A stretch of DNA of 64,000 nucleotides from an uncultured Acidobacteriota bacterium. Its GTDB lineage: Bacteria; Acidobacteriota; Vicinamibacteria; Vicinamibacterales; SCN-69-37. Under the pieces are notes generated by a model, which had not been told where the DNA came from, ran no database searches, and worked only from the letters and a program-made list of their open reading frames with translations. The DNA is taken from NCBI GenBank assembly GCA_963798795.1, contig CAWCUZ010000001.1:1076729-1140728 (forward strand). The letters run 5' to 3'. Position numbers and translations under genes: made by a program. Of the stretch, positions 6,411 to 51,048 are shown piece by piece. Every line of letters starts with the position of its first letter. Position 1 is the first letter of the stretch.

Positions 6411-6571
6411 GATTCGTGATTCGTGATTCGTGATTCGTGATTTGCGATTTGCGATTTGCGATTGCTGATTGATTGAACGATTGAGTGATTGATTGAACGA
6501 TTGGCCGGCCGATTGCCGATAGCCGATAGCCGATCCGATTGACGCTTGCCGATAGGAGATTGCCGATGATC
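6411..6571. repeat. Heptamer-phased tandem array: (GATTCGT)x4, (GATTTGC)x3, then degenerate GATT/CCGATAG-type 7-mers.
   Basis: Read directly: gattcgt x4 (6411-6438), gatttgc x3 (6439-6459), then gattgct gattgat tgaacga ttgagtg attgatt gaacgat tggccgg ccgattg ccgatag ccgatag ccgatcc gattgac gcttgcc gatagga gattgcc gatgatc. The 7-nt register is kept for about 23 units up to the ATG at 6566. Confidence 0.9.
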
Positions 6572-7912
6572 TGCCTGCTCCTCCTGACCTTGTGGCCGCA
6601 GGCGCCGCAGTGGATTGACGCGTACCGGGCGCCGGCCGCGCGACTGCTGCAGGCGGCGCAGGCCGACGACCACGCGTGGCGGCGGCTCGCCGAGCTCACT
6701 GATACCTACGGCAACCGCCTGTCCGGCTCGCGCACCCTCGAGCAGGCGATCGACTGGGCCGTCGCCACCATGAAGGCTGACGGACTCGAGAACGTGCACA
6801 AGGAGCCGGTCATGGTGCCGCACTGGGTGCGCGGGCGCGAGAGCCTGACGCTGCTCTCGCCCGTCGAACAGCCGCTCGTGATGATCGGCCTCGGCAATTC
6901 GGTGGGCACGCCGGCCGGTGGCGTCGAAGGCGACGTCGTCGTCGTCGGCAGCTTCGACGACCTGCAGACGCGCGCGGCGGACGTGAAGGGCCGGATCGTG
7001 CTCTTCAACGTGCCGTTCACGAACTACGGCGAGACGGTGGTCTATCGCACGATCGGGCCGTCACGCGTGGCGCAGCTCGGAGCGATCGCCATGCTGCTGC
7101 GGTCGGTTGGGCCGCCGGGACTGCGCACACCGCACACCGGCGTCACCCACTACGCCGACGGCGTGCCGCAGATTCCCGCGGCGGCCATTCCCACCGAGGA
7201 CGCCGATCGGTTCCAGCGCTTGCAGGACCGCGGCGCACCCATCCGCGTCCGCCTGATGATGGAGGGCCGCTTCGAGCCCGATTCGCAGTCCTATAACGTC
7301 GTCGGCGAGCTGCGCGGCCGCGAGCTGCCCGACCAGGTCGTGCTCGTCGGCGGACACATCGACTCGTGGGACGTCGGCGCCGGCGCCACCGACGACGGTG
7401 GGGGGTGCATTGCCACCTGGGAGGCGGTCCGGTTGATGAAGGCGCTCAATCTGCGGCCCCGGCGAACGGTGCGCGTCGTGCTCTTCACCAACGAGGAGAA
7501 CGGCGCGCGCGGCGGCGCGGGCTACCGCGACGCACATCGCGCCGAGCTCGACAACCATCTCGTGCTGCTCGAGTCGGACGGCGGCGTGTTCAAGCCGACC
7601 GGCTTCGGGTTCACCGGTCCGGACGAGTCGAGGGCGACCGTCAGGACGATCGCGGGCCTGCTGGCGCCGATCGGCGCCACGGCCGTCCAGTCCGCCGGCG
7701 GCGGCACCGACATCGAGCCCGCCGCGACCGAGGGCCACGTCCCGATGCTCGAGCACCTGGACGAGGGCGAGTACTTCCTCATCCACCACACGCCCGCCGA
7801 CACCATCGCGCGGATCGACCCGCAGCAACTCGCGCAGAACGTCGGCGCGATCGCGGTGATGGCGTACACGACCGCCGACCTGCCGTTCCCGTTCCGGCCG
7901 GGCACGCGCTAG
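6566..7912 (+). CDS. M28-family aminopeptidase with a PA domain, secreted.
   Basis: ORF 6539..7912. It has a PA-domain stretch (GDVVVVGSFDDLQTRAADVKGRIVLFN) and M28 metal-ligand context (VVLVGGHIDSWDVGAGATDDGGG, VVLFTNEENGARGG). ATG 6566 (MICLLLLTLW) is preferred over TTG 6539. The frame is intact. Confidence 0.85.
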   Translation: MICLLLLTLWPQAPQWIDAYRAPAARLLQAAQADDHAWRRLAELTDTYGNRLSGSRTLEQAIDWAVATMKADGLENVHKEPVMVPHWVRGRESLTLLSPVEQPLVMIGLGNSVGTPAGGVEGDVVVVGSFDDLQTRAADVKGRIVLFNVPFTNYGETVVYRTIGPSRVAQLGAIAMLLRSVGPPGLRTPHTGVTHYADGVPQIPAAAIPTEDADRFQRLQDRGAPIRVRLMMEGRFEPDSQSYNVVGELRGRELPDQVVLVGGHIDSWDVGAGATDDGGGCIATWEAVRLMKALNLRPRRTVRVVLFTNEENGARGGAGYRDAHRAELDNHLVLLESDGGVFKPTGFGFTGPDESRATVRTIAGLLAPIGATAVQSAGGGTDIEPAATEGHVPMLEHLDEGEYFLIHHTPADTIARIDPQQLAQNVGAIAVMAYTTADLPFPFRPGTR

Positions 7913-7938
7913 ACGTCCGCCCGCCAATGGAGGACGGT

Positions 7939-8001
7939 CGCCGGGGCTGAAGACCCGGCGCTCCAGGGAACGGATGGAGCCCCGGGGCTGCAGCCCCGGG
8001 G
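7939..8001. terminator. Two GC-rich hairpins between convergent genes, probably a bidirectional terminator.
   Basis: A 7-bp stem cgccggg/cccggcg with a loop containing ctgaa lies at 7939-7960. A perfect 22-nt palindrome ccccggggctgcagccccgggg lies at 7980-8001. Both sit between the M28 stop (7912) and the ChaN stop (8007). Confidence 0.55.
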
Positions 8002-8006
8002 ACGCG

Positions 8007-8930
8007 TCAGTCTTCCTTCAGCGTGTAGACGAGAAAATCGGCGCGCGCGCGCTCCCTCTCGTCCGGCGCGAGCGCGTCGAGGTTGTCCACCGGCAGCACG
8101 GAAATGACGACGACGCGCCGGCCCGGGAGGCGGCGCATGGCCCGTGCGGCCGTGCCCTCGTGGAAATCGGTATGGAACGCGCCGTTGAAATGCACGACGA
8201 GCGGATACTTGCCGCCGGCCGACGCGGCCTCATAGGCCTGCGCCACCGATTCGCCCATCGTCTCGTCCTTGAGACACTGGGCGAGATAGAAGCGCTCGAG
8301 CGTCTGGCGCGCGGCGGTTGCCGCGTGCTCGTCTCCCCCTTCGGCGCCGGGATGCCCGCTCATCGCCTCGCCGAACCGCTTGAAGTAGTCGTCGTCGGTC
8401 GGACACTGCAGGTCGGCGGCGAACCATCTTCGTTCGAGTTCCGGCAGGTTCTTCAGCGCACCCAGGCCCGATTTGGACACGTCAGACGCGACCTGCCGCG
8501 GCACGTTCGTGGCGATCACGGGCCAGTCGTGCGCAATGGCCAGATCGACGAGCGGCTTGTAGTCGGTCGCATAGCGCGGCCAGGGCCGCGAATCCGCCAG
8601 GAATGCGGCCTCATCCTCATGCCCCATGGCGAAATGGTCGAGCGACTCCTGCACGTCGCGCTCGAACATCTCGAGCCCGACCGTGATGTCGGCGCGCCGG
8701 CGCGCGAGTCCTTCGAGCACCGCCAGCTCCAGCACGTGTGTGTTGGGATCGTCGTGCTGTTCGCCGACGAAGACCACGTCGGCCGTCACCAGCCGCGCCA
8801 GCATCGTCTCGAAGTCCGCGAACTGCCCGCGGGAGGTGTCGAATACGCGCTGCGGCACGTAGCGCGCCTGCGCGTGCATCACGACCCCGGCCGACACCGC
8901 CATCGCCGCCACCACGAGAAGACGTCTCAT
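8007..8930 (-). CDS. ChaN-family (haem-binding / Tiki-like) lipoprotein.
   Basis: This is the C-terminal 307 aa of ORF 8007..9122, starting at MRRLLVVAAMAVSAGVVMHA. ChaN-like motifs are present: VVFVGEQHDDPNTHVLELAVLEGL, VGLEMFERDVQ, YKPLVDLA, and HFNGAFHTDFHEGT. Confidence 0.7.
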   Translation of the reverse strand: MRRLLVVAAMAVSAGVVMHAQARYVPQRVFDTSRGQFADFETMLARLVTADVVFVGEQHDDPNTHVLELAVLEGLARRRADITVGLEMFERDVQESLDHFAMGHEDEAAFLADSRPWPRYATDYKPLVDLAIAHDWPVIATNVPRQVASDVSKSGLGALKNLPELERRWFAADLQCPTDDDYFKRFGEAMSGHPGAEGGDEHAATAARQTLERFYLAQCLKDETMGESVAQAYEAASAGGKYPLVVHFNGAFHTDFHEGTAARAMRRLPGRRVVVISVLPVDNLDALAPDERERARADFLVYTLKED

Positions 8931-18960: not shown

Positions 18961-20586
18961 ATGACACGACTGCCTGCTTTCGTCGGTTTCGCTCTTCTCG
19001 TTCCCGTGGCCGTCGCCGCGCAGCCGGCGCCGCGGCCCGCGCCGCCGGCGCCGCGGCCGACCCAGACGCCGATGGTCGTGCCGGCGCCCGCGCCCCGAGT
19101 CCTGGCGCCGGAGCTCCCGCCGCTGCCCGAGGTCGCGCTCGCGCCCCGGCCCGATCTGGATCTGATGCCGCTGGCTCCCCTGCCCATGCTGGCCCCCGTT
19201 CCGCCCCAGCGGGTAGTGATCGATCCCGACGCGGTCGACGCCATTCGCCAGGCCGCTGAAGCGGCGCGTGACGCCGCGCGCGATGCGCGGCGCGTCGATC
19301 TGGATGCGATGCGCCAGGCCATGGACGAAGCGCGCGTCCAGCTGCACGACTTCCGATTCGACATGCCCGACATCCACGTGCCCCTGCCGGACGCGCACGT
19401 GTGGAGCGACTTCGACCTGCAGGCGTCTCCCTGGGTCACGGCCGACCAGGGCGCCAGCAGCGACGCGAGCCTCTACAGCAACGGCCTCGGCTACATCCAG
19501 CGCCACAACTACGACCAGGCCATCGTCTACTTCGACCGCGCGCTCGCGCGGAAAGGCACGCATGGCGAGGGGGCCCTGTACTGGAAGGCGTTCGCGCAGT
19601 ACAAGCTCGGCAAGACCACCGAGGCGCTGGCCGCGATCGCGGACCTGCGCAAGAGCTATCCGCAGAGCTCGTACCTGAACGACGCCAAAGTGCTCGAGGC
19701 CGACGTCCGGAAACTCGACGGCCAGCCGGTCAACGTGGCCGGCATGGACGACGAGGAGCTGAAGATCCTCGCCATTCACGGCATCCTGAACGCGGATCCG
19801 GATCGGGCGCTGCCCCTGATCGAGGGCGTGCTCAACGCCACGAACTCGTTGTCGGTCAAGAAGGAGGCGCTCTACGTGCTCGCCGGCAGCGACGACGCGC
19901 GCGCGCACCAGATCCTGCTGAAGTACGCCAAGGGCGCGGGGAATCCGGATCTGCAGAGCCTCGCGATCCGGTACCTGGCGAGCACGGGCAAGCAGCAGAC
20001 GACCGCCGCGGAGCTGCGCGAGATCTACGAATCGACCCAGGACCCCGCCATCCGCTCGGCGATCATCGACGCCTACGCGCGGTCCGGCAACAAGAACGCC
20101 CTGTTCACGATCATCAGCTCCAGCGGCAGCACGCCGGTCGCGCTGCGGCAGCGCGCGGTGAACGGCGTCGGCGACCTGGCGACCCCCCAGGAAATCTGGA
20201 CGCTCTACCAGAAGGAAGAGAACCGCGATCTGCGGATGCAGATGGTGAGCGCGTTCAGCTCGATGGGCGCGATCGACCAGCTGACCGAGGTCGCGAAAAC
20301 GGAGAAGGACCCGGCGGTGAAGCAGCGCGCCATCCGATCGCTCGGCAACGCCAAGGCCGACAAGACCGGTTCGGTCCTCACGACAATCTATGCCGCCGAT
20401 TCCGACAAGGACACGCGCAAGACGATCATCTCGGCGCTCGCGAACCAGGGCAACGCCGAGGCCCTCGTCGCCCTCGCCCGCAAGGAGACGAGCCTGGATC
20501 TGAAGACCGAGATCGTCCGCCGGCTGTCGGACATGGCGCCGAAGTCGAAGGTGGCGGCGGACTATTTGATGGAAGTCATCAAGTAA
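18961..20586 (+). CDS. Secreted TPR plus HEAT-repeat protein.
   Basis: ORF 18946..20586, using ATG 18961 (MTRLPAFVGFALLVPVAVAAQ). A Pro-rich linker is followed by a TPR-like part (YDQAIVYFDRALARKG...ALYWKAFAQYKLGKTTEALAAI) and then repeated HEAT-like units (DPAIRSAIIDAYARSGN, DPAVKQRAIRSLGN, DKDTRKTIISALANQGN). Confidence 0.65.
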   Translation: MTRLPAFVGFALLVPVAVAAQPAPRPAPPAPRPTQTPMVVPAPAPRVLAPELPPLPEVALAPRPDLDLMPLAPLPMLAPVPPQRVVIDPDAVDAIRQAAEAARDAARDARRVDLDAMRQAMDEARVQLHDFRFDMPDIHVPLPDAHVWSDFDLQASPWVTADQGASSDASLYSNGLGYIQRHNYDQAIVYFDRALARKGTHGEGALYWKAFAQYKLGKTTEALAAIADLRKSYPQSSYLNDAKVLEADVRKLDGQPVNVAGMDDEELKILAIHGILNADPDRALPLIEGVLNATNSLSVKKEALYVLAGSDDARAHQILLKYAKGAGNPDLQSLAIRYLASTGKQQTTAAELREIYESTQDPAIRSAIIDAYARSGNKNALFTIISSSGSTPVALRQRAVNGVGDLATPQEIWTLYQKEENRDLRMQMVSAFSSMGAIDQLTEVAKTEKDPAVKQRAIRSLGNAKADKTGSVLTTIYAADSDKDTRKTIISALANQGNAEALVALARKETSLDLKTEIVRRLSDMAPKSKVAADYLMEVIK

Positions 20587-20619
20587 GGCAGAAGGCAAAA
20601 GGCAGAAGGCAGAAGGCAA
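20585..20619. repeat. Heptamer tandem array (AAGGCAG/AAGGCAA) x5.
   Basis: aaggcag aaggcaa aaggcag aaggcag aaggcaa starts inside the TAA stop of the upstream HEAT gene and ends 20 nt before the next ATG. Confidence 0.9.
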
Positions 20620-20639
20620 CAGTTTCGGAGCGCCGCCCT

Positions 20640-21760
20640 ATGCGCGTATTGCTCGCAAGCGCCATGTTGCTGGCTGCGGCGACGGCCGGCACGGCCTTCC
20701 AGGCCCCGGCTGCGCAAGTGCCGTCGCAGATCCAGGTCCAGAACGGCCGGATCGAGCCGCGGCCGGGCACCGACATCGCCGCGGAGGCCGCGCGCCTCGC
20801 GCCGCCGGCCGGCGCCGATCCGGTCTGGCTCGGCTGGCGCGTGCCCATCGTCGCGGGCGGCCGCGGCGGCTGCAGCTGGTACGTCGACGACGGCACGGGA
20901 CCGATGGGAATCCGCGCGTCGGTCCTCGAATCCTCCGGCGCGCGGCTGCCGCAGATTGCGCCGCCGACCGGCCCCGTGCCGATCGAGGCCGGCACCGGCC
21001 TGATGGTGCTCCTCCGCCTGCTGGACGGCCAGGTCGAGCGGATTCGCACGCTCGGAGACGACTGCCCCATCGATGCCGGCGGCCGCACCCTGTACCTGGC
21101 TCGCCGGCGTCACCCCCGCCGCGAGCCTCGCCTACCTGGACACCCTGACCCACGGCGCCGCGCCGGCCGACATGACGCCGAACGCGTGGCGCCGCCGGGC
21201 CGAAGCGGCCGTCTCGGCGATTGGCCAGCACGGGGACGCGGCTGCGGACGCACTGCTCGACCGGCTCCTGTCGACTGCGAATGATGCGGCGCTCCGGCAG
21301 CAGGCCGCCTCCGTGCTCGCCTCCACCCGAGGCGCGCACGGGTTCGACGCCGTGCGTCGGGCGATAGCCGCCGAGCGCGACCCCGCCGTCCGGCGCAGCC
21401 TCGTCGTCGCACTGGGCCAGACCCGCCAGCCCCAGACCCCTGAGGCGCTGCTCACCCTGGCGCGCCGCGATGCCGACGCCAGGGTGCGCAGCGAGGCGGC
21501 CTACTACTACGCCGTGCGGGCGGGCCCGGCCGGTGTGGCCAACGTGAAGGCATTGATCGCGAGCGACATGGACAGCAGCGTCCGCCGGCGTGCAGTGTCC
21601 GGCCTGGCGGCCCTGCCCGGCGACGTGGCGGTTCCGGATTCTGATCGAGCTGGCGCGAACGAGCCAGGACCTGGAGGTCCGGAAACAGGCCGTCTCGCAG
21701 CTCGGCCGCAGCAAGGACGCGCGCGCCGTCGCCTTCCTCGAGGAACTCATCAAGGGCTGA
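20640..21760 (+). pseudogene. Secreted HEAT-repeat protein with two frameshifts.
   Basis: MRVLLASAMLLAAATAGTAFQ...DCPIDAGGRTLY is inside ORF 19401..21284. It continues as WLAGVTPAASLAYL...ERDPAVRRSLVVALGQT...DADARVRSEAAYYYA...DSSVRRRAVSGLAALPGDVAVP in ORF 21073..22005. It then ends as ILIELARTSQDLEVRKQAVSQLGRSKDARAVAFLEELIKG in the third frame, with stop 21758-21760. Shifts fall near 21095 and 21637. Confidence 0.65.
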
Positions 21761-21800
21761 CGTGCGATACACTCCTCAGGTTTACGGAGGAGGTTCCACG

Positions 21801-24800
21801 ATGTCACGCCCAAGACGCCTCAGCGTTCCGATGGCCGTCGGCTGCGCCGTGCTCTGCACGGCCTGGGGAATCCAGGCCGGGGCGGCTCGCGCTGACCGGC
21901 AGACGGCCGCGCCCCCCGGCCTGGATCCTGCGCTGCTCGCCACGTTTCAGTGGCGGAGCCTCGGCCCGGATCGCGGCGGCCGCTCGCTCGCCGTCTCGGG
22001 CGTGAAGGGTCAGCCGGACGTCGGCTACTTCGGCGCCACGGGCGGCGGGCTCTGGAAGACGACGGACCGCGGCGATACCTGGGCGCCGGTCACGGACGGT
22101 CAGGTGCACAGCGGCTCGGTGGGCGCCGTCGCCGTCTCCGAGAGCAACCCCGACGTCGTCTACATCGGCATGGGCGAGTCGTGTATCCGCGGCAACATCC
22201 AGCCCGGGGACGGCGTCTACAGGTCCACCGACGCGGGCAAGACCTGGACGCACGTGGGGTTTTCGGACTCCGACGCCATCGCCAAGGTCCGGATCCATCC
22301 GACCAATCCCGACATCGTGTTCGTCGCCTCGTTCGGCAAGTACGGCGGGCCGAGCCCTGAGCGCGGCGTGTTCAAGACGACCGACGGCGGCCGGACGTGG
22401 AACAAGGTCCTGTTCCGCGATGACAAGACCGGCGGCGTCGACATCGCCATCGACCACAACAACCCGGCCGTGATGTACGCGGCGCTCTGGGAGGCGTTCC
22501 GCAAGGAATACACGATGTCGAGCGGCGGGCCTGGCAGCGGCCTGTTCAAGTCGACGGACGGCGGCGACACCTGGAGGGAAATCACCCGGAACCAGGGCCT
22601 GCCCTCGGGCATCGACGGCAAGATCGGCGTGGCCGTGTCGGGCGCGGATTCCAGCCGCGTCTACGCCATCGTCGAGAACGCGAACGGCGGGCTGTTCCGA
22701 TCGGACGACGCCGGCGCCACCTGGACGCTCGCCAACAACGAGCGCAGCATCCGCCAGCGCGCGTTCTACTACACGCATATCACCGCCGACCCGCACAACA
22801 AGGATCTGCTGTACGTGCTGAACGTCGGCACCTTCCGCTCGACGGATGCGGGCAAGACAATGGTCCGATTCGCCGGCGGCGATTCGCATGACCTGTGGAT
22901 CGATCCGGACGACTCCGAGCACGTGATGCACGCGAGCGACGGCGGCGGCGCGATCACCTATGACGCCAGCGCGCCGAACCGCAATTGGACCTCGCGGGAC
23001 TATCCGACCGGGCAGTTCTACCACGTGATTCCGACGGCCCACGTGCCCTACCAGATCTGCGGCGCACAGCAGGACAGCAGCACTGTCTGCATCCCGAGCA
23101 CTCCGTCGGGCGGCGGTGGCCGGGGCGGCCGCGGCGGACGCGGCGGGAGCGCGCCCACCAGCTACAGCCCCGGCGGCGCCGAGCCCGGCTACATCGCGCC
23201 CGATCCGAAGGACCCCGACGTGTTCTTCTCGGGCAGCAACAACGGCGGCTTTATGGACTACGTCAACCGGCGCACCGGCGAGCGGCGCGAGGTCCATCCG
23301 TACCCGCGCATGTTCTCCGGCGAACCGTCGAGCGCGCTCGTCGAACGGGTCCAGTGGACGTACCCGATCGTCTTCTCGCCCGTCGATCCGAACGTGCTCT
23401 TCACCGCCACCCAGCACGTGTGGCGGACGACCAGCGGCGGACAGACGTGGGACCGCATCAGCGACGACCTGACGCGGCACGACCCGTCGACGATGGGCGA
23501 TTCGGGCGGACCGATCACACACGACATGAACGGTCCGGAGGTGTACGCGACGGTCTTCGCGCTCGGCCCATCCAAGGTCGACGTGAACGTGCTCTGGGCG
23601 GGCTCTGACGACGGGCTCGTCAACGTGACGCGCGACGGCGGCAGGACGTGGACGAACGTGACGCCGCCGGGCATGCCGGACTTCGGCCGCGTGAGCATCA
23701 TCGACGCGTCGACGTTCGACGCCGGCACGGCCTACGTGGCCGTCAAGCGGCCGCTGCTGAACGACAAGGCGCCCTACCTCTTCCGCACCCACGACTTCGG
23801 CCGGACCTGGACGAAGATCGTCAACGGCCTCGGCCCGCTCGACTACGTGCACACGGTGCGCGAGGACCCCACGCGCCAGGGGCTGCTCTACGCCGGCACG
23901 CAGCATGGCGTGTACTACTCGTACGACGACGGTGGTACCTGGCGGTCGCTGTCGCTGAACCTGCCCGACACGCAGGTGTCGGACCTGTGGGTCGTCGACA
24001 GCGACATCGCGATCGCGACGCACGGACGCGGGTTCTACATCCTCGACCACATCGCGCCGCTGCGGCAGTACGGCGCGCAGCCCGCCGCGGCGAGCGATGC
24101 CGTCCTGTTCAAGCCAGACGCGGCGATTCGCTCCGCGGGCAACGCGACCATCGAGTACTGGCTGAAGCAGCCGGTCGGCACTCTCACCCTCGACGTCGTC
24201 GACCCGAAGGGAACGGTCGTCCATTCGTTCTCGAGCAACGCCGCGGCCGGTGGTGGAGGCGGACGCGGCGGGCGCGGCGGCGGCGGGGCTGGCGCGGGAC
24301 GCGGCGGCGGCCGCGGGCAGGCACCAGCACCGGCGGCGCCGTCGGCGAGCGTCGGATCGCCAGGCGCCGGATGCGGCCCAGGCGGAGGCGGCTTCGGGGG
24401 ATTCGGCGGCCGCGGCGGCCGTGGCGGCGGAGCCGCGGGCCCCACGCCCGCGCCGGCCACTGTCGGGTTGAACTGCGTGACGTGGAACCTGCGTTATCCC
24501 GATGCGGTCGGCTTCCCGGGGATGATCCTGTGGGGCGGCGGCCTGAGCGGGCCGGCCGCGGCTCCCGGAACCTACCAGGTGCGGCTCACCGCGAACGGCA
24601 GGACGCAGACCCAGCCGCTCGTCATCAAGCGACACCCGTGGCACGCCGCGACCGACGCCGACCTGCAGGAGCAGTTCGACCTGGCGATCCAGGTCCGCGA
24701 CAAGGTCACCGAGGCGAATCAGGCGGTGATCCAGATTCGCCGAATCCAGGACGCGGTCGGTGACCGCCTCGGCAAGTCATCCGATGCGCGGCTCAAGTCG

Positions 24801-25103: not shown

Positions 25104-25224
25104 TTGGGAGATTTGGCGATTTGGCGATTTGGAGATCTGGTTGCAGCGTTCCAAACCGGCAATCTCCAAACCTCCAAACCTCCAAACCTCCAAATCTCCA
25201 AATCTCCAAATCTCAATCCCAATC
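25102..25224. repeat. Opposed arrays of an 8-nt unit (GATTTGGN vs NCCAAATC) forming a long imperfect hairpin.
   Basis: The left arm is gattggga gatttggc gatttggc gatttgga gatctggt (25102-25141), followed by the spacer tgcagcgt. The right arm is tccaaacc ggcaatc tccaaacc x3 tccaaatc x3 tcaatccc aatc (25150-25224). The outermost gattggga pairs with tcccaatc at 25217-25224. The array lies between convergent genes. Confidence 0.9.
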
Positions 25225-29678: not shown

Positions 29679-29681
29679 CGG

Positions 29682-33241: not shown

Positions 33242-34761
33242 CGGCCCGGGCGGCGCGGCCCGGCCGTTCGGCCGCCCGACGGCGGCGCCCGGCGGAGCGT
33301 TGGCGAGTTCAGGTCGAGCTCGCTGAGGGGAATCCGCTCGAAGTCGTCGAAACCCAGCGCCTTCAGCTGATCGACGAACCTGGCCGCGTCGCCGACCAGC
33401 ACGATCGACAACCGGTCGGGCCTCAGTAAGGCGCGCGCGACGCGGTCGACGTCCTCCACGGTCACCGCGTTGACGCGATCGCGGAACGTCTCGAGGTCCT
33501 TCAGATCCAGGCCGTAGAAGAGCTGGTTGAGCACCTGGAGGGCGATCGCACTCGGCGTTTCGACGGTCAGTGGGAAGCTGCCGGCCAGAAAGTCCCGCGC
33601 CCCCGCCAGTTCACGCGCGTCGACGGGCGTCCGCTGAAGCCGGGCGAATTCGTCCACCATCAGCCGCAGCGCCTCGCCGGTCGTCGGCGACCGCGTATTG
33701 GTCTGGGCGACCATTTCGCCGGCGCCCTTGAAGGCGTGCAGGTCGGCCGAGGCGCCGTAGGTCAGGCCGCGATCGCTTCGCAGCACGCCGAACAGCCGGT
33801 TGGCGCCCTCGCCGCCGAGGATGCGAATCGCCATGTCGAGCGTCAGATAGTCCGGATTCGTCCGCGCGATCGACAGATGGCCGATCCGGATCTCGGTCTG
33901 CGCCGAACCTGGCCGATCGATGACGACGACGCGCCGGATCGGCGCCGGCGGCTCGATCGGCGCGATGGTCGGCACGTCCTTGCGCGCCCAGTCCCCGAAG
34001 GCCCGCTCGGCCGCCGCGAAGGCCTCGTCGGCGGTAATGTCACCGACGATCGCGAGCAGCGCGTTGTTCGGCAGGAACCAGGTGTCGTGAAACGCCACCA
34101 GGTCCTCGCGCTTGAGCCGGCTGATCGACTCCGGCGTCCCGTCCCCAGGCCGCCCGTACGGGTGATATCCGAACACGAGCCGGTCGAAGACGATGTCGGC
34201 CACGTAGTCCGGATCGTCGTAGCTCACCTGCAGGCTCGACAGCGCCTGGCGCCGCTCGCGCTCGATTTCGTCCGGCGCGAACGCCGGACGCTGCACCATG
34301 TCGGCTGCCAGCCCGAGCGCCAGGTCGGTCCGGTCGTTCACGACGGCGCCGCTGACGAACGTCAGCTCGTTGCCGGCGCCGGCGCCGAGGATGCCCCCGG
34401 CCGACTCGATGAGGTCCGCAATCTGCTCGGAGGACTTCGTGGTCGTCCCCTGGTCGAGCAGCGACGCCACGAATCCGGCCACGCCGGGTTTGTCGGCTGG
34501 CTCCTGCATCGCGCCCGCGCGGACGAGCAGCCGGAAATCGATCGAGGGCTGTTCGTGGTGCATGACGACGAGCACCTGCAGCCCGTTCTTCAGCGTGCGG
34601 ATCTCATAGGGCGGAAAGGAGACCGGGTGTTCGGCCAGCGGCCGCGGGCGCCTGATCGCTCGGCCACTCCTGCCGCTGAGCCGCGGGCGCGGCGACCCGA
34701 AGCTCACTGCCGCCAGCAGCGCCGCGCCGGCCAGGACGGCGGACCGCCGCCGCGCGGTCAT
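33238..34761 (-). CDS. M16-family (pitrilysin) peptidase homologue lacking the HxxEH motif, probably a non-catalytic partner subunit.
   Basis: ORF of 507 aa with an M16 fold signature but VAGFVASLLDQGT where HxxEH would be. It overlaps lpxB and the upstream M16 gene by 4 nt each. Confidence 0.75.
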   Translation of the reverse strand: MTARRRSAVLAGAALLAAVSFGSPRPRLSGRSGRAIRRPRPLAEHPVSFPPYEIRTLKNGLQVLVVMHHEQPSIDFRLLVRAGAMQEPADKPGVAGFVASLLDQGTTTKSSEQIADLIESAGGILGAGAGNELTFVSGAVVNDRTDLALGLAADMVQRPAFAPDEIERERRQALSSLQVSYDDPDYVADIVFDRLVFGYHPYGRPGDGTPESISRLKREDLVAFHDTWFLPNNALLAIVGDITADEAFAAAERAFGDWARKDVPTIAPIEPPAPIRRVVVIDRPGSAQTEIRIGHLSIARTNPDYLTLDMAIRILGGEGANRLFGVLRSDRGLTYGASADLHAFKGAGEMVAQTNTRSPTTGEALRLMVDEFARLQRTPVDARELAGARDFLAGSFPLTVETPSAIALQVLNQLFYGLDLKDLETFRDRVNAVTVEDVDRVARALLRPDRLSIVLVGDAARFVDQLKALGFDDFERIPLSELDLNSPTLRRAPPSGGRTAGPRRPGR

Positions 34762-36123
34762 TGCCCGCCTCCGGTCCCGGCGGCGGCTGCGGGCAGCACG
34801 GTCAGCCGCATGCGCGACTCGGGCGTGAAGTAGTTCGTCGCCACGCGCTGCACGTCCTCGGCGGTCACGTTCTGGAAGAGGTCGAACTCGCCGTCAGCCG
34901 TCCTGATGTCGTTGTGGATCACGATGGCGTGCGCGAGCTGCAGCGCTTTCTGCCGCACCGTCTCGCGGCCGAGGATGTAGTCGCGGGCGAACTGCCGCTT
35001 GGCCCGGTTCAGCTCCTCGGCGGTGATGCCCTCGCTCTTGATGCGATCGATCTGCCGCTGCAGCTCGTCCATGACTTCATCGGGCTGATGCCCGGGCTGG
35101 ACGATCGCGACGGCGTAAAAGAGATTCGGATCCTCGATCAGCTTCGCCTCGCCGAACGCCGCCAGCGCCAGCTGCTTCTCGTAGACGAGATCCTGGTAGA
35201 TGCGCGAGCTGTCCCCGTCGGACAGGATCTTCGCCAGGATGTGCAGTGGATACGAGTCCGGGATTGCCGTCGTAGGTGATGTGATAGGACACGACCACGG
35301 CCGGCAGCGGCCAGTTCTCCGTCACCGTGAAGCGCGCCTCGGCCGTGTGCGCCGGCTCCGCGGCAATGTCGCGCGGCACGGGCCGGCCCTTCGGTACGCG
35401 GCCGAGATACTGCTCGACCAGGTCCTCCGCCTGCTTCGTCTCGAAGTCGCCGACGAGCGCCACCGTGGCGTTGTTCGGCACGTAGTAGGTGTCGTGGAAG
35501 GCCCGCACATCGTCAATCGACGCCGCCTCCAGGTCCGCCATGCTGCCGATCGTCTGGTGCTTGTAGGGATGTGTCGTGAACGCCTTGTCGAAGATGATCT
35601 CCGACAGCCGGCCGAACGGCTGGTTCTCGAACCGCATCCGGCGCTCTTCCTTGACGACTTCGCGCTCGGTCGTGAACTTGTCCTCGCTCACGTCGAGCGA
35701 CGCCATCCGGTCGGCCTCGAGCCACAGCGCCATCGGCAGGGACTGCGCCGGGACGGTTTCCCAGTAGATCGTTGTGTCCTCGTCCGTGAAGGCGTTGGAC
35801 TGGCCACCGATGCTCGTGATGAGCGACGGGTGCTGATCGGGCCGCACGTTCTTCGAGCCCTTGAACATCAGGTGCTCGAACAGATGCGCAAACCCGGTCC
35901 GGCCCGGCTTCTCGTCCCGCGAACCGACGTGGTACCAGATCGCCACGTGGACGATCGGCGTCGAGTGATCCTCCAGATAGACCACCTGCAGCCCGTTGGC
36001 CAGCGTGTTCATCGTGTAGTCGAATTTCGGCGGGCGGGGCACCGCGGCCGGCGCCGCGGCGCTCGGCACCACGAACAGGGCGCCCAGCAGGGCCGTCGCA
36101 CGCAGACATTTCGAGCCGATCAT
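34758..36123 (-). pseudogene. M16-family zinc peptidase (catalytic, HxxEH) with one frameshift.
   Basis: ORF 35077..36171 from MIGSKCLRATALLGALFVV carries GFAHLFEHLMFKG, EREVVKEER and more, up to VVSYHITYDGNP. The conserved continuation DSYPLHILAKILSDGDSSRIYQDLVYEKQLALAAFGEAKLIEDPNLFYAVAIVQPGHQPDEVMDELQRQIDRIK... is in the frame of ORF 34758..35072. An extra base lies near 35260. Confidence 0.8.
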
Positions 36124-41774: not shown

Positions 41775-42212
41775 TCAGCCGTTCACGGGAATCTGCCGCG
41801 GCCGCGCTTCGTCGCGCCGGGGCAGAGTGAGCGTCAGCACGCCGTCCTCGTAACTGGCCTGCACGTGCTCGGCGTCCACCGCCTGCGGCAGCGTGAAGCT
41901 GCGCCGGAACGAGCCATAGCTGCGCTCCAGCCGGTGATACCGGTCGCGGTTGACGTCACGGTCGAACGCGCGCTCGCCCTCAATCGTGAGGACGTTGTTC
42001 TCGAGCGTCACCTTGATGTCCTCGCGCTTCAGGCCGGGCAGTTCCACCTTGACCACCGCGTCCTTCGTGTCGGTGTCGTAGATGTCGACGGCCGGCGTCC
42101 AGCCGCCGCTCGTCGTCGGCTCGCTGCCGAAAAAGTCATCGAACATCCGGTTCAGGCGGTCCACCTCGACGGCAGCCAGGCCACTCATCGGGCTCCAACG
42201 GGTCAGTGTCAT
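41775..42212 (-). CDS. Hsp20/alpha-crystallin small heat-shock protein.
   Basis: ORF 41775..42278 from MTLTRWSPMSG. The alpha-crystallin domain is PAVDIYDTDTKDAVVKVELPGLKREDIKVTLENNVLTIEGER...ERSYGSFRRSFTLP...ASYEDGVLTLTLP. The RBS gaggagga lies upstream of the ATG. Confidence 0.9.
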   Translation of the reverse strand: MTLTRWSPMSGLAAVEVDRLNRMFDDFFGSEPTTSGGWTPAVDIYDTDTKDAVVKVELPGLKREDIKVTLENNVLTIEGERAFDRDVNRDRYHRLERSYGSFRRSFTLPQAVDAEHVQASYEDGVLTLTLPRRDEARPRQIPVNG

Positions 42213-42249
42213 GGTCGGTCTCCTCCTCAAGGGTCGATTCGTTAGAGAC

Positions 42250-42278
42250 ATGATAGCCACTATATTAGCTTCTGTCAA
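42250..42278 (-). promoter_or_regulatory. Near-consensus sigma-70-type promoter for the minus-strand hsp20 gene.
   Basis: The minus strand reads TTGACA (42278-42273), a 17-nt spacer, then TATCAT (42255-42250), about 40 nt upstream of the ATG at 42212. It sits inside an unusually AT-rich island (42241-42320). Confidence 0.55.
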
Positions 42279-42377
42279 ACATATTATATGAGTGCATACA
42301 ACGCATATTTAGAACACCGTCCAGCTGACAAAGCGAACCCTCGGCTCCTTCCGGGTTGCCTTGTATGATCGACACTC

Positions 42378-42821: not shown

Positions 42822-43647
42822 TCCGCCTGCTGTTCATCGGCGACATCGTCGGCCGGCCGGGCCGCGAGATCGTTCGCCGGGGACTCGCGGCCATCGTCGC
42901 GCATCGCCGGATCGACCTGGTCATCGCCAACGTCGAGAACGCCGCCGCGGGTTTCGGCGTAACGCCGGACATCGCCGACGACCTGCTCGAGCGCGGGGTC
43001 CACGTGATGACCGGCGGCAATCACATCTGGGACAAGAAGGAGATCCTCCCCTACATCGATCGCCAGCCGCGCCTGCTCCGGCCGGCGAACTTTCCGGCCG
43101 GCGCCCCGGGGCGCGGCATCTGCGTCGCGCAGACCGCGTCGGGCGTCCCGGTCGCGCGTGATCAACGTCATGGGCCGCGTCTTCATGAATCGACGATCGA
43201 CGACCCGTTCCGCATCGGCCGAGGCGGCGATCGAGGCGCTCGCCGGCGAGGCGCGCGTCATCTTCGTGGACTTCCACGCCGAGGCGACGTCCGAGAAGGT
43301 CGCGATGGGCTGGCACCTCGACGGCCGCGTCACCGCGGTCGTCGGCACGCACACCCACGTGCAGACGGCCGACGACCGCGTCCTGCCCCGCGGCACGGCC
43401 TACATCACGCGACGTCGGCATGACCGGTCCGCACGACTAGGTGATCGGCGTCGAGCGGGCCGCCGTGATACAGCGCTTCCTGACGGGCCTGCCGCAGCGG
43501 TTCGAGACCGCCACCGAGAACCCGCGCCTGAACGCCGTCATCGTCACGGCCGACGACGCCACGGGCCGCGCGGCCGGCATCGAACGGCTCAGCCTCGCCG
43601 CCGAGGACGTCGAGGCGCTGGTCGCGGCGCCGGCCGCGACCTCCTGA
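42818..43647 (+). pseudogene. ymdB: YmdB-family metallophosphoesterase (2',3'-cyclic-nucleotide 2'-phosphodiesterase) with four frameshifts and one in-frame TAG.
   Basis: MIRLLFIGDIVGRPGRE...[42 protein letters not shown]...GVPVA is in ORF 42818..43423. The remaining segments change frame as follows: [11 protein letters not shown] (ORF 43158 frame) / [11 protein letters not shown] (back in the first frame) / [62 protein letters not shown] / [30 protein letters not shown]... (ORF 43441..43647). Shifts fall near 43155, 43190, 43220 and 43408. The TAG is at 43438-43440. Confidence 0.85.
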
Positions 43648-43658
43648 ACACGGCTCGC

Positions 43659-45032
43659 ATGGACGACTGGCTCCGCTCCCCTTCGACGAGCCGCGCGCGC
43701 CCGCGCCCGGCGCCGCCGCTCTCGGTCAGCGAGCTGACGATGCGCCTGAAGGCGCTCGTCGAATCGGGATTCGCCGGCGTGGCGGTCGAGGGCGAGATTT
43801 CGAACTGCAGGCAATGGAGCTCGGGCCACATCTACTTCACCCTCAAGGACGAGCACGCGCAGCTGCGCGCCGTCATGTTCCGCGCGACCGCCCGCCTGCT
43901 CAAGTTCACGCCTCGAGGACGGCCTGCACGTCGTGGCGCGCGGCCGCCTCAGCGTGTACGAGGTCCAGCGGCGACTATCAGCTCATCTGCGACGCCGTCG
44001 AGCCGCGACGGACTCGGCGCCCTGCAGCTCGCGTTCGAGCAGCTCAAGCGACGCTGCAGGCCGAGGGACTGTTCGACCAGGCCCGGAAGCGGCCGCTGCC
44101 GGTTCTGCCGCGCCGGATCGGCGTCGTCACGTCGCTCGACGGCGCGGCCGTGCGCGACATCGTCCGCGTGCTCACGACGCGCCATCCCACGGCGCGCATC
44201 CTCGTCCGGGCGGCGCGGGTGCAGGGCGACGGCGCCGCCGAGGATCTCGACGCGGGCCCTCAGGGCCGTCGCGCGCGCGCCCGGCGTGGACGTCGTCATC
44301 ATCGGCCGCGGCGGCGGATCGGCCGAGGACCTGTGGGCCTTCAATGACGAGGGCCTCGCCCGGGCGATCGCGACCTGCCCCGTGCCGGTCATCTCGGCTG
44401 TCGGCCACGAGGTGGACTTCACGATCGCGGATTTCGTCGCGGACGTGCGCGCCGCCACGCCGTCCAATGCGGCGGAGCTGGTCGTCGAGCGCGCCGACCA
44501 CTTCTGCGCGCGGATCGATCGCGCCGAGCATCGGCTGCGCTTCGCCGCCCGCCGCGGCGTCGAGCGGCGTCTGCAGGCGGCGGATCGCGTTGACGGGCGG
44601 CTCCGCCGCTGGCCCACCGCGGTCCTGCTCCGCGCCCGCGAGGCGGACGAGATCAACGGCCGCCTGGCCCGCCTGATGCAGGTCCGGGTCACCCGTGTCG
44701 GCCAGCTGCTCGAGCGCCTGCGACGGCGACTCGAGCGGCGGAACGTGCGCCAGGTGGCGGCCGACCTGCGGACCCGGATCGTGCGCGCTGACGGACGACT
44801 GGCGGCGCTGGCCATGCGCCGGCGCCTCGCCGCCGAGGGGCGGGCGCGCGAACTGGCCGCGCGGCTCGATTCGCTCAGCCCGCTGGCCGTGCTCGGCCGC
44901 GGCTATGCGGTCTGTTGGAACGAGACGCGCACGAGTATCATTCGTTCGTCGCGCAGCGTGGCGCCGGGCGACGGCGTTCGCGTCACGCTGGCCGAAGGCG
45001 AGCTGGAGTGTCGCGTGGAACATCGCTCATGA
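43659..45032 (+). pseudogene. xseA: Exodeoxyribonuclease VII large subunit with five frameshifts in a 340-bp stretch.
   Basis: The N-terminal OB fold ([65 protein letters not shown]) is in the frame of ORF 43158..45032. The next four segments change frame: [19 protein letters not shown] / [13 protein letters not shown] / [13 protein letters not shown] / [67 protein letters not shown]. The gene then returns to the first frame for [40 protein letters not shown]...[28 protein letters not shown] and runs to the end. Shifts fall near 43912, 43970, 44010, 44050 and 44250. Confidence 0.85.
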
Positions 45033-49554: not shown

Positions 49555-50715
49555 ATGTCCTCGAAGTCCCGCTGGGTTATCTTTCTGATTTCGACCCCGC
49601 TCGTCGTGTTCACCGCCGTCGGCGGCCTGCTGGGCGCGTCGGCGGCGCAGTCGGAAAGCTTCACCCATCTGAAGGTGTTCGAGGACGTCGTGTCGCTCAT
49701 CGTCAGCGCCTACGTCGAACCCGTCGATGCCGACAAGGTCATGGAAGGCGCCATGCGCGGCCTGGCCGATGGCCTCGACCCGGCGAGCGCGTACCTGACG
49801 CCCGATGACGTGGCGACGCTCCAGGCGGGCACTCCGCTGCCGGCCGGGGACGTGGGGCTGACGGTCACCCGCCAGTTCTATCTGCGCGTGGTCGGCGTCC
49901 GGGACGGGTCGCCGGCGGCGCGCGCGGGACTGCGGACCGGCGATTACATTCGAGCCATCGACGGCAAGCCGACGCGGGATGTCTCGGCGTTCACCGGCAC
50001 ACGCTGGCTGCATGGCGATCCCGGATCCAAAGTCGAATTGACGGTCATTCGAGGCAACGCAGCCGATCCGCACGTCATGCCCCTGGTCCGCGAGGCACCG
50101 GCCCGGGAACTGGTAACGGGCCGGACGATGCCGACCGGCGAAGGCTACGTGCGCATCGTCAGTTTCCGGGAGGGCGCTGCGGCGGCGCTGCGGAGCCGGA
50201 TCGCGGCACTCCAGAAGTCCGGGGTCGCGATGGCCGTCATCGACCTGCGCGGCGTGGCGGACGGACCGCCGGAGGAAGGCATTGCCGCCGCGCGGCTGTT
50301 CGTCAAAGAGGGGACCATCGCCATCCGCCAGGGCCGCGGCCCCGATCGCACCACCATCGAAGCCGGGTCCGGTGACGGCGCGCTGACGCTGCCGATCGTC
50401 CTGCTCGTGTCGAACGGCACGGCGAATGCCGCCGAGGTTTTTGCGGCCGCCCTCGACGGCCACGACCGGGCGGACCTGGTCGGCGAGCCGACCGCGGGAC
50501 TGGCCGCTCTGCAGCATCTGGTGCTCCTGCCCGAAAATCGCGGCCTGTGGATGACCTACGAGCGCTATCTCACGCTGAACGGCGACCCCCTCCACGAGCG
50601 CGGCTTGCGGCCCGACGTGGTCGTGGAAGAACCGGTCGTCGGATTCGACGAGACGCCGCCGGCCACCGACGAGCCGCTCAACACGGCGCTCGCACGGCTT
50701 CACGGGAAGTCATAA
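49555..50715 (+). CDS. S41 (C-terminal processing peptidase) homologue with a PDZ domain. Both catalytic-dyad positions are substituted.
   Basis: ORF 49537..50715, using ATG 49555 (MSSKSRWVIFLISTPLVVF). The PDZ domain is GLTVTRQFYLRVVGVRDGSPAARAGLRTGDYIRAIDG. The S41 core is VIDLRGVADGP...IVLLVSNGTANAAEVFAAALDGHDRADLVGEPTAGLAALQ, where the family consensus is GSASASE...TFGKGxxQ. Confidence 0.8.
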   Translation: MSSKSRWVIFLISTPLVVFTAVGGLLGASAAQSESFTHLKVFEDVVSLIVSAYVEPVDADKVMEGAMRGLADGLDPASAYLTPDDVATLQAGTPLPAGDVGLTVTRQFYLRVVGVRDGSPAARAGLRTGDYIRAIDGKPTRDVSAFTGTRWLHGDPGSKVELTVIRGNAADPHVMPLVREAPARELVTGRTMPTGEGYVRIVSFREGAAAALRSRIAALQKSGVAMAVIDLRGVADGPPEEGIAAARLFVKEGTIAIRQGRGPDRTTIEAGSGDGALTLPIVLLVSNGTANAAEVFAAALDGHDRADLVGEPTAGLAALQHLVLLPENRGLWMTYERYLTLNGDPLHERGLRPDVVVEEPVVGFDETPPATDEPLNTALARLHGKS

Positions 50716-50842
50716 GGTCCCAAGGTCCGAGGGTTCGCGGAACGAGCCGACGCGTGCCTCATTGTTTGAAAGAAGCTGGCCAGCGTCAGTTCGTTCGTCG
50801 GCCCCTGGGACCTTGGGACTCTGGGACCTTGGGACCTCTGAG
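50714..50842. repeat. Opposed octamer arrays (AAGGTCCC-type vs CCTTGGGA-type) around a 65-nt AT-richer spacer.
   Basis: The left arm is aaggtccc aaggtccg agggttcg (50714-50737), starting inside the TAA stop of the S41 gene. The right arm is cctggga ccttggga ctctggga ccttggga cctctgag (50804-50842). The units are reverse complements of each other. Confidence 0.85.
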
Positions 50843-50891
50843 ATATACTGAACGTTCGCCGTGGGCCCGATGCCTGCGGCAGAGGTGCCGT

Positions 50892-50968
50892 AGGCGCGTA
50901 GCTCAGCTGGTTAGAGCGCCTGCTTGACATGCAGGAGGTCGGCGGTTCGAGTCCGCCCGTGCCTACCA
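50892..50968 (+). tRNA. tRNA-Val (anticodon GAC) with CCA encoded.
   Basis: A cloverleaf can be read by hand. The acceptor stem is aggcgcg/cgtgcct (one G-U pair). The D-arm is gctc-agctggtta-gagc. The anticodon arm is cctgc-ttGACat-gcagg. The variable loop is aggtc. The T-arm is ggcgg-ttcgagt-ccgcc. The discriminator is A, followed by CCA. Confidence 0.9.
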
Positions 50969-50970
50969 AC

Positions 50971-51048
50971 GAACGCTGAACCTGGAACCCGGAACCGAAC
51001 CTGGAACTCTGAACCGAACCGGGAACCCTGAACCGGGAACCCGCAACC
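50971..51048. repeat. Heptamer-phased array with a GAACC core (about 11 copies).
   Basis: gaacg ct gaacc tg gaacc cg gaacc gaacc tg gaact ct gaacc gaacc gg gaacc ct gaacc gg gaacc cg caacc. The array fills the whole gap between tRNA-Val and the thrS GTG at 51053. Confidence 0.85.

Follow-up and report, generated by a model that had tools for sequence, protein, structure and literature searches.

Short-period tandem arrays in the intergenic DNA of a Vicinamibacterales genome and its relatives: probably slippage-made filler

What are the short tandem repeats that occupy several intergenic gaps in a stretch of acidobacterial DNA, and do they serve the genes next to them? The question is raised by a 64-kb stretch (the window) with a GC content of 0.70 from an uncultured member of the Vicinamibacterales (Acidobacteriota). 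An earlier note, made from the sequence alone, had described units of 7-9 nt repeated head to tail at seven intergenic loci of this window. We searched the whole window with Tandem Repeats Finder (TRF) and recovered short-period tandem arrays at all seven of them. On balance, the arrays are probably microsatellite-like, near-neutral filler that is made by slippage and is pervasive in the Vicinamibacterales. The evidence for this view, and the other explanations that have to be weighed against it, are described below.

The strict criteria for an array were a period of 6-10, at least three copies and a score of at least 40, and genes were called by codon usage (64 in the window). The gaps of the window hold eight arrays, compared with none in 49 of 50 dinucleotide-preserving shuffles and one in the remaining run. 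For a view beyond the window we made use of the threonyl-tRNA synthetase (ThrRS) encoded at 51053-52984, whose best relatives, at 73-82% identity, are found in Vicinamibacterales genomes reconstructed from metagenomes. These metagenomes stem from soil and other environments; the source contig of the window itself spans at least 2.71 Mb. The ThrRS relatives provided a set of 80 loci of up to 22 kb each (designated by L numbers), and all density figures for the lineage refer to the window plus the 70 loci that permitted gene calling, 1.40 Mb altogether. Comparing intergenic with coding DNA, as the earlier note had suggested, gave a clear answer for the window and its relatives: non-coding DNA carries 1.21 arrays per kb (176 arrays in 145 kb) and coding DNA 0.035 per kb (44 arrays in 1255 kb), a 35-fold difference. 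Nor can the arrays be put down to chance, which the note had named as a reason to drop the idea, since 166 arrays were observed in 812 gaps that yielded only 0-4 per run after shuffling.

Arrays are enriched in the Vicinamibacterales lineage, but they are not exclusive to it. The window and the related loci contain 15.7 arrays per 100 kb (220 arrays in 1.40 Mb). Metagenomic loci with closer homologues of a BNR protein of the window contain 11.5 per 100 kb, and those with distant BNR homologues, at similar GC content, 2-4 per 100 kb. The identical pipeline found no array in 50 kb of a Ralstonia megaplasmid (66% GC), a single hexamer array in 50 kb of Sinorhizobium pSymB, and none in a 50-kb region of E. 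coli that includes the thrS-infC-rpmI-rplT-pheST operon. An assembly artefact is ruled out by the presence of arrays in dozens of independent metagenome-derived genomes from different sequencing projects.

Two parts of the original description need to be toned down. Intergenic DNA is not 'systematically' built from such units: eight gaps that measure 80 nt or more are low in GC and clearly non-coding, and six of them have arrays; the other two, at 42189-42377 (the promoter region of the divergent HSP20 genes) and 59190-59302, consist of ordinary unique sequence. Many other apparent gaps in the window are coding sequence, and several of its genes are frameshifted. The arrays are indeed less GC-rich than the genes, with an average of 0.54, but this is not specific to them, since non-repeat intergenic DNA of the window has a GC content of 0.47-0.54.

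The features of the seven loci are listed here by window position, together with the tRNA gene used as an anchor; no strand is assigned to the arrays.

6410-6567, no strand: array A, composite heptamers in the order GATTCGT (4.6 copies), GATTTGC (3-4 copies), the 20-nt unit TGATTGATTGAACGATTGAG (1.9 copies) and GCCGATW (8.9 copies); TRF and sequence.
20585-20618, no strand: array B, AAGGCAG (4.9 copies); TRF.
25102-25140, no strand: array C, left arm, GATTTGGM (4.9 copies), reading GATTGGGA, GATTTGGC twice, GATTTGGA, GATCTGG; TRF.
25150-25226, no strand: array C, right arm, CTCCAAAY (6.4 copies at 25150-25214), reading TCCAAACC three times, TCCAAATC three times, TCAATCCCAATC; TRF and sequence.
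25806-25859, no strand: array D, left run, six degenerate 9-mers GGTSNNTCR; TRF at 25803-25826, 2.7 copies, score 34.
25877-25927, no strand: array D, core of GATTG-type units, CGATTGA CGATGGCC CAATCG CGATTGGA GATTGCC and onwards; sequence.
25934-25966, no strand: array D, right run, GGGTCTCG GGTCCCTCA GGTCCCTCG GGTCCGGG; TRF at 25938-25964, 3.0 copies.
32018-32072, no strand: array E, 8-mers of the ATTCAAGG type, 4.4 clear copies at 32018-32052 plus degenerate copies; TRF.
50716-50737, no strand: array F, left arm, about two units AAGGTCCS, reading AAGGTCCC AAGGTCCG AGGG; sequence.
50738-50804, no strand: array F, centre, a unique GC-rich stem-loop (GAACGAGCCGACGC ... GCGTCAGTTCGTTC); fold.
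50805-50840, no strand: array F, right arm, four copies of TGGGACCT, the inverted complement of the left arm; TRF.
50892-50968, plus strand: tRNA-Val(GAC), not part of the arrays; anchor for the orthologous comparison.
50978-51050, no strand: array G, 11 heptamers of the GAACCYG type (74% matches); TRF.

Array A starts 13 nt past the TGA (6395-6397) of the frameshifted upstream gene and reaches the Shine-Dalgarno sequence GGAG (6555-6558) and the ATG (6566) of a gene assigned by Pfam to the M28 peptidases. Its neighbouring units are identical in blocks, which is the pattern expected of local duplication. The gene before array B encodes a HEAT/TPR protein; the array starts inside its TAA (20584-20586) and stops 21 nt short of the next ATG at 20640. 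Array B has no inverted partner, and its RNA is predicted to be unstructured (fold z +1.8). The same applies to the predicted RNA of array E (z -0.2), whose degenerate copies run to and over the lpxB stop codon (32060-32062, minus strand), and to that of array G (z +0.3), which occupies the spacer between tRNA-Val and thrS up to the GTG at 51053. The left run of array D lies just upstream of the algH start (25788, in minus-strand sense) and gives no fold signal (z +0.2 to +1.0). The core of array D lies between its two 9-mer runs, and the right run covers the queG stop codon (25948-25950, minus strand) together with the last five queG codons. The latter observation suggests that arrays can extend into the 3' ends of genes or originate there.

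Arrays C and F are organized differently. The left arm of array C starts inside the TGA (25101-25103) of a BNR/sortilin-like gene, and its right arm, which ends 16 nt from the stop codon (25243) of the convergent algH-like gene, is the inverted complement of the left one; the mirroring includes even the variant unit at the outer end (GATTGGGA / TCCCAATC). The predicted hairpin reaches -49 kcal/mol on the plus strand and -65.7 on the minus strand (z about -6; none of 200 shuffles was equally stable). In array F the first unit starts inside the TAA (50713-50715) of an S41 peptidase gene, and the arms lengthen the central stem-loop outwards (predicted fold of 50706-50850: -73.5 kcal/mol, z -5.8). 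The right arm ends 3 nt before the -10 box TATACT (50844-50849) of the tRNA-Val promoter and covers the -35 position. Contrary to the earlier note, terminal inverted repeats are therefore present at C (25102-25226) and F (50716-50840), which form hairpins with z near -6; A, B, D, E and G are without them. The claim of cores that recur between loci stands in part: GATT-type units are found at A, C, D and E, and a 12-mer, TTGGAGATTGCC, is common to A, C and D.

Across the lineage, heptamers dominate. Unit lengths in gaps are 7 nt in 119 cases, 8 nt in 30, 9 nt in 19, 10 nt in three and 4 nt in one, and units of 5-6 nt do not occur. Copy numbers have a median of 4.6 and a maximum of 24.9. The 176 arrays comprise 128 distinct canonical units, and the window alone has at least four unit families. 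Nevertheless, units within a genome resemble each other: when heptamers of separate gaps are compared, 24% of the pairs within a genome and 4.6% of those between genomes show no more than one difference, against about 2% for a letter-permuted null. TA, AT, CG and GC steps are avoided within units, and GGG or CCC is found in 55 of the 176 units (31%), against 37.7 +/- 4.3 expected; among the window arrays only F (TGGGACCT) and D contain such runs. For 83 of the 176 arrays an inverted-complement match lies within 250 nt, whereas the corresponding controls gave 0 (reverse only), 6 (complement only) and 11 (direct). Apart from this, an 8-10-nt unit family, YCYTYSGTG / CACSRARGR, recurs in L032, L035, L039, L041, L057 and L076. 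It occupies many gaps of L041 and often forms inverted pairs (L041 1890-2051 and 3045-3103; L039 4058-4111). The GATTCGT array of the window, when read as TTCGTGA, has the TTCGTG core of this family.

The position of the arrays relative to genes is not random. In agreement with the earlier note, which had seen them begin at stop codons, B, C and F start inside a stop codon, and a start within the range of -3 to +4 nt from a stop codon's end is seen in 47 of 157 arrays of the lineage. The stop codon often lies within the first unit, as in repeated TAGGGGC or in TAA-GGCAG AAGGCAA. The stop codons that touch arrays are TAA in 25%, TAG in 44% and TGA in 31% of the cases, and those of other genes in 14%, 31% and 55%, respectively (chi-square p = 0.004). 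This excess of TAA and TAG could stem from expression level, from a preference for TA sites, or from arrays reshaping the stop codon. In the lineage, arrays are carried by 33% of the convergent, 16% of the co-directional and 12% of the divergent gaps. The note had placed them between divergent pairs as well, but none is found there in the window, and divergent gaps are the poorest in the lineage. The genes next to the arrays are ordinary housekeeping genes (thrS, tRNA-Val, lpxB, queG, aconitase).

Comparison of relatives indicates rapid turnover of the arrays. Copy numbers were compared between L032 and L034, which are 94% identical and differ both in copies and in whole arrays. At the AAAGTGGA / ACTTTTCC hairpin between tRNA-Val and thrS, L034 has about one unit more on one arm and about four more on the other than L032. 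Upstream of rpmI, L032 has an inverted AATKCAG pair that L034 lacks, and after rpmI, L034 has six copies of GCCTGGGT that L032 lacks. The latter array adjoins GCCAGTGGGG, a seed-like sequence that is also cited from L032. The closest relative of the window that we found is L164 (AlgH 88% identical, about 78% nucleotide identity), which is syntenic with window positions 19544-35325. Three of its junctions are nearly empty: 10 nt between queG and algH versus 159 nt in the window (array D), 10 nt downstream of lpxB versus 106 nt (array E), and 11 nt downstream of the HEAT gene versus 53 nt (array B). Conversely, L164 carries an inverted pair of its own at a junction that is free of arrays in the window. 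Between genomes of less than 82% identity, an array was retained in 15 of 50 orthologous gaps, and the unit was the same in only five. Within arrays, the identity of units drops from 0.877 to 0.826 as the distance between them grows.

The site of array G can be followed through the whole set, because tRNA-Val is followed by thrS in 77 of 81 loci. The spacer between them measures 7-282 nt (78 loci), so that nothing inside it can be required. Short spacers have room for the ribosome-binding site only; long ones contain arrays or unrelated palindromic elements. Related units group in small clades, with short spacers scattered among them. The palindromic elements, which lie just before position 10001 of the relatives' loci, are of two types. 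Type 1, TTCGACTCG..CTCGCTCATGGCRGGCC..TCCTGAGCGAGC..GCGAGTCGAAGGA, was seen in L009, L012, L019, L020, L030, L040, L046, L065, L066 and L073, and type 2, RCCTTCGCTCAC..GAGCTTCGGYTGGCAAGCC..GCGAAGGY, in L003, L015, L023, L027, L031, L043, L044, L051, L059, L067, L071 and L072. Both are non-tandem and REP/MITE-like (MITE, miniature inverted-repeat transposable element), begin at the 3' end of tRNA-Val and sometimes occur in 2-3 copies; they are absent from the window.

The tRNA-Val promoter, with its strongly conserved motif TGnTATACT, offers a similar view of array F. In nearly all 71 loci a -10 box TATACT followed by GNNCGTTCG is located about 40-45 nt upstream of tRNA-Val(GAC). An extended -10 TG is present in 48 of these loci and a TTGAC -35 box in 25; the window promoter has neither a TG at the canonical position nor a -35 box. 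Arrays reach within a few bases of the -10 box, and TTGAC is found in none of the eight array-bearing loci but in 25 of the 63 others. That TTGAC and arrays do not coexist fits the idea that arrays fill unconstrained DNA.

How could such arrays be formed and maintained? While DNA is replicated or repaired, strand slippage or tandem duplication would create them and keep remodelling them, and they would survive only where selection tolerates extra DNA. Such sites would be the stretch from the stop codon to the ribosome-binding site in compact operon junctions, convergent gaps, and DNA upstream of promoters that can do without a -35 box. Persistence limited by tolerance would account for the abutment on stop codons, the depletion in divergent gaps and the differences in units from locus to locus. 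In operon junctions of about 10 nt, the stretch between stop codon and ribosome-binding site would be the only permissive point, so that array starts would peak at the stop codon without any targeted insertion. About half of the arrays would have grown as two inverted arms round a central GC-rich hairpin, with possible stems of 40-60 bp. These hairpins presumably existed before the arms grew, and template switching or selection may have kept the arms complementary. Some copying between gaps would also take place, to judge from the unit families at genome level and from a composite palindrome that is present three times in one relative (L074). Slippage as the molecular process is suggested by the pattern as a whole, namely copy-number change, gain and loss between relatives and the decay of unit identity with distance. 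Individual arrays would be dispensable and close to neutral, and any function, for example of a 3'-end hairpin, would be generic and secondary. Among the candidate roles put forward in the earlier note, we therefore favour the by-product of a lineage-specific replication or repair bias, based on the lineage excess, the rapid turnover, the lack of strand or RNA asymmetry (see below) and the occurrence of arrays at junctions that measure 10-11 nt in relatives.

Several points weigh against this explanation. Slippage by itself gives no reason for the sharp distribution of unit lengths, with 119 heptamers and no units of 5-6 nt, and it leaves the genome-specific unit families, the excess of TAA plus TAG next to arrays (69% vs 45%) and the three-copy composite palindrome of L074, with its same order of unit variants, equally unexplained. 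Thus, the heptamer threshold and the unit families remain outside the view that we favour. The site of array F holds canonical terminators with hairpin and T-run in L021, L027 and L028, which is compatible with a terminator role of paired arrays. Our gene calls are home-made and imprecise at gene starts, and the genome of L034 was reconstructed from metagenomic short reads of low coverage. Moreover, the copy-number change was seen between the relatives L032 and L034, not within one species. Strains of the same species were sought by exact-protein look-ups (L20, L35, AlgH and the 100%-identical P0001), which gave none, by an AlgH homology search, in which the next-best match was 88% identical, and by a metagenome scan with the BNR protein, which gave at most 71% identity.

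The hairpins and the terminators at the site of array F raise the question whether the inverted-pair arrays (C, F and about half of those in the lineage) are functional 3'-end RNA structures, that is, factor-independent terminators, insulators that separate transcription units, barriers to 3' exonucleases or long double-stranded substrates of RNase III, with the repeats being merely the way in which stems grow. The predicted hairpins are very stable, with z near -6 and a mean of -70 kcal/mol over 47 gaps. Convergent gaps are richest in arrays (33-40%), and array C lies between convergent genes. Array F is located exactly between a stop codon and the tRNA-Val promoter, where L021, L027 and L028 have their terminators and L015 a long unique palindrome. 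Canonical terminators are not enriched in the window, with two found and five expected from shuffles, which also fits this idea. But the hairpins of C and F are not followed by a T-run, and a consensus scan found no intrinsic terminator at any array; canonical intrinsic terminators are thus not supported. Of 47 co-directional gaps with array hairpins, 26 had the more stable structure on the sense strand and 21 on the antisense strand (p = 0.44), and G-U pairs numbered 205 and 173; this balance gives no sign of selection at the RNA level. Pairs are equally common in co-directional (47/106) and convergent (10/21) gaps, the whole inverted pair upstream of rpmI in L032 is missing in L034, and unstructured single arrays are not covered at all. 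Overall, we regard 3'-end structures as an unlikely primary explanation, and the insulating structured spacer proposed earlier is possible only for the hairpin-forming half of the arrays.

Single arrays gave no better indication of an RNA function. Those in co-directional gaps show no bias in sense-strand composition (G exceeds C in 38 cases, the opposite in 27; p = 0.16), which argues against C-rich Rho-utilisation sites and purine-rich Shine-Dalgarno-like elements. In an Rfam search only tRNA-Val and a 6S RNA exceeded the threshold, and no match fell into array regions. The lack of asymmetry between strands or at the RNA level is a direct observation, as are the excess and the location of the arrays, their turnover, and the fact that orthologous sites can do without them.

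Could the arrays instead be mobile? In that case they would primarily be dispersed REPIN/MITE-like elements, heptad-armed palindromes copied by a transposase acting in trans, and slippage would only be a later modifier. Support comes from the composite element of L074: its three copies have a variable centre, and their arms, each about 60 nt long, agree in the order of AGTGCNA variants. The unit families within genomes, the 12-mer shared by arrays A, C and D, and the GATTG-type units embedded in the 9-mers of array D point in the same direction, as do similarities of 56-167 nt between different gaps of several genomes in blast searches; the between-genome rate of the latter is inflated by orthologous tRNA and conserved regions and is unusable as a control. 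On the other hand, the three L074 copies have unrelated centres and neither target-site duplications nor fixed termini, 128 canonical units among 176 arrays are hard to reconcile with dispersal, and new arrays resemble local sequence, as the GCCTGGGT array of L034 does beside the GCCAGTGGGG of L032. Half of all arrays are single and have no inverted partner. Of the 64 genes called in the window, 62 were scanned with Pfam, and none of these has a transposase, RAYT (Y1 transposase) or integrase domain; the window represents 64 kb of a genome that measures 2.7 Mb or more. We therefore give little credence to mobility as the primary explanation.

Comparison with known mobile or repetitive elements leads to the same view. 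REP elements are unique, imperfectly palindromic stretches of 20-40 nt whose sequence is conserved and which are tied to a RAYT transposase. The arrays resemble REP, BIME and REPIN elements in that they are extragenic, lie mostly at gene 3' ends or in convergent gaps, form hairpin doublets and genome-specific families and are individually dispensable. However, their arms are tandem arrays of variable copy number with locus-specific units, not a conserved palindrome. MITEs were likewise rejected: terminal inverted repeats exist at C, at F and at 83 of the 176 lineage arrays, but the L074 copies have no target duplication and no conserved centre. CRISPR arrays, which consist of 23-47-nt repeats separated by unique spacers of similar length, were correctly set aside in the earlier note, as the units of 7-9 nt follow head to tail without spacers.

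The unit families could also indicate that the arrays are platforms for a putative repeat-reading DNA- or RNA-binding protein (nucleoid, regulatory or G-quadruplex-related) whose specificity co-evolves with the dominant unit of each genome. The GGG/CCC excess and the depletion of the palindromic steps TA, AT, CG and GC agree with this, and three heptamers would correspond to two helical turns. Yet the units are very diverse, with four or more families within 64 kb, arrays are gained and lost beside essential genes between close relatives, and no candidate protein is known. A binding platform thus appears very unlikely. A related reading combines features of the last two: a lineage-specific, hitherto undescribed repeat system, in which composite palindromes with modular 7-nt arrays as arms and a variable centre are actively copied next to stop codons, or are kept uniform by a trans factor (transposase-like or heptad-reading) that also sets the minimum of 7 nt. 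We consider such a system improbable, although simple slippage leaves the unit families, the L074 element and the absence of 5-6-nt units unexplained.

The earlier note had also listed slippage-prone contingency tracts, i.e. loci whose copy number switches or tunes the expression of a neighbour, as in phase variation. In such loci the repeat lies in the promoter or the 5' coding region of a variable gene (surface, restriction-modification), where a new copy number alters spacing or frame. Copy number does vary between relatives, A and G reach start codons, and F covers the -35 position of tRNA-Val. But the neighbours are housekeeping genes rather than surface or variable genes, most arrays trail stop codons, and the divergent gaps, which contain promoters, are the poorest in arrays. 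In addition, the array end next to the promoter or start codon is fixed, so that a change in copy number leaves the spacing unaltered. We find a contingency role scarcely credible.

Is a repeat of this kind new? Contrary to the statement that no described element class has this organisation, intergenic heptamer-dominated arrays with inverted pairs are known from Xanthomonas (PMC4692102), and the general class is that of long simple sequence repeats with units of 5-11 nt (LSSR5-11). The arrays belong to this described class, together with the Xanthomonas GGGAATC pairs and the cyanobacterial short tandemly repeated repetitive sequences (STRRs), and do not form a new one. They differ from its known members in host lineage, unit diversity, frequency of 8- and 9-mers and quantified stop-codon adjacency. 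Simple sequence repeats (SSRs) with longer units are characteristic of non-pathogens whose genomes are large and contain more than 60% G+C, and heptamers stand out among them; a link to polymerase slippage and the footprint of the active site was proposed (Mrázek, Guo and Shah, PNAS 2007, as cited in PMC4692102). Repeats of 6-11 bp are over-represented intergenically in some genomes (Huang and Mrázek 2014, PMC4060949), and loops of 1-3 nt are dealt with efficiently by mismatch repair, longer ones poorly (PMC4060949). Like LSSR5-11, the arrays described here are head-to-tail units of 5-11 nt beyond chance and concentrated in non-coding DNA, with length polymorphism between related genomes (L032/L034), as slippage predicts. 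What our measurements add are the high density (about 1.2 arrays in each kb of non-coding DNA), the lack of units of 5-6 nt, the inverted pairing of half of the arrays and the start at stop codons. A search for reports on tandem repeats in Vicinamibacter or the Vicinamibacterales found none.

A close parallel is GGGAATC of Xanthomonas, with 183-186 arrays per genome, 89-93% of them intergenic and near the upstream open reading frame (Rehm et al. 2015, PMC4692102). Of these arrays, 70-75 are arranged as inverted pairs with the potential to form stem-loops; the arrays are rarest between divergent genes, and their position is conserved between species, whereas length and sequence vary (PMC4692102). 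The heptamer arrays of Xanthomonas and Nostoc (GGGAATC; GGGGA(T/C)T) contain 2-26 units (PMC4692102). Both systems share with ours the intergenic location near the 3' end of the upstream gene and the frequent inverted pairs, but those genomes use one G-rich unit capable of forming G-quadruplexes, and here 128 units in 176 arrays fall into loose families, only 31% of them have a G3 or C3 run, and units of 8 and 9 nt are common. The cyanobacterial STRRs and the TAACTGA repeats of Beggiatoaceae are intergenic direct heptamers with 2-43 copies per set (MacGregor 2015, PMC4679880). They often lie beside start codons of ordinary genes, including those for ribosomal proteins, and their placement just upstream of starts suggested a translational regulator (PMC4679880). 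They too are direct intergenic heptamers, but with one or a few fixed units per genome, whereas ours are diverse, mostly follow stop codons and have no strand bias.

Bacterial satellite families derived from microsatellites of 6-8 nt are abundant, for example in Burkholderia (Subirana and Messeguer 2019, PMC6749651). Species-specific families scattered in one genome were described for Chloroflexus aurantiacus and Mesorhizobium ciceri ((AGGGGAGT)2), and replication errors and a possible transposition mechanism were held responsible (PMC6749651). This survey scored repeats of at least 10 nt and described neither inverted pairing nor adjacency to stop codons; the string 'Acidobacter' is absent from its main text. 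The tandem repeats of Borgs are likewise pervasive, direct, fast-evolving, recently formed and independent at many sites (PMC9879509). They belong, however, to archaeal extrachromosomal elements and are frequent in genes, where they give rise to disordered protein regions, and our arrays are nearly absent from coding DNA.

The arrays extend a known but poorly understood class, the heptamer-dominated SSRs in the non-coding DNA of large GC-rich genomes, to the abundant and mostly uncultured soil order Vicinamibacterales. A sizeable share of the intergenic DNA of this lineage would be repeat filler with fast turnover and not conserved regulatory sequence. Such arrays will mislead motif finders and predictors of small RNAs and terminators, and their variable copy number makes them natural markers for strain resolution. 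Hundreds of independent arrays with differing units also provide an unusually clean dataset for asking why bacterial slippage favours 7 nt and how inverted arrays remain complementary.

Some minor observations were made in the window. Genes appear split or fused at 5453-6397, 20640-22005, 4041-5206, 60197-62895 and 43158-45032. At 5453-6397 one gene is read in three frames, ABC transporter genes are fragmented, and a single open reading frame merges a YmdB-like domain with that of the exonuclease VII large subunit. These cases suggest indel errors of a long-read assembly, or pseudogenes. In the operon downstream of thrS, infC apparently starts at a non-canonical ATC or ATT about 8-10 nt past the thrS stop codon (GGAGGTAGTT ATC GCT TAC ...), which would make the apparent 69-nt gap at 52985-53053 coding sequence. 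A 22-nt direct repeat, CGAAGCGGGGTCTGACCCGSTGA, is present in 2.1 copies at 53552-53598, extending from the last part of infC over its 41-nt junction with rpmI. A small hairpin lies in each copy, and the repeat could relate to L20-dependent control of rpmI-rplT. Finally, the 6S RNA (Rfam RF00013, 74.5 bits) is located at 57993-58176 on the plus strand, directly after zapA and before thiL; E. coli has the same arrangement of zapA and ssrS.

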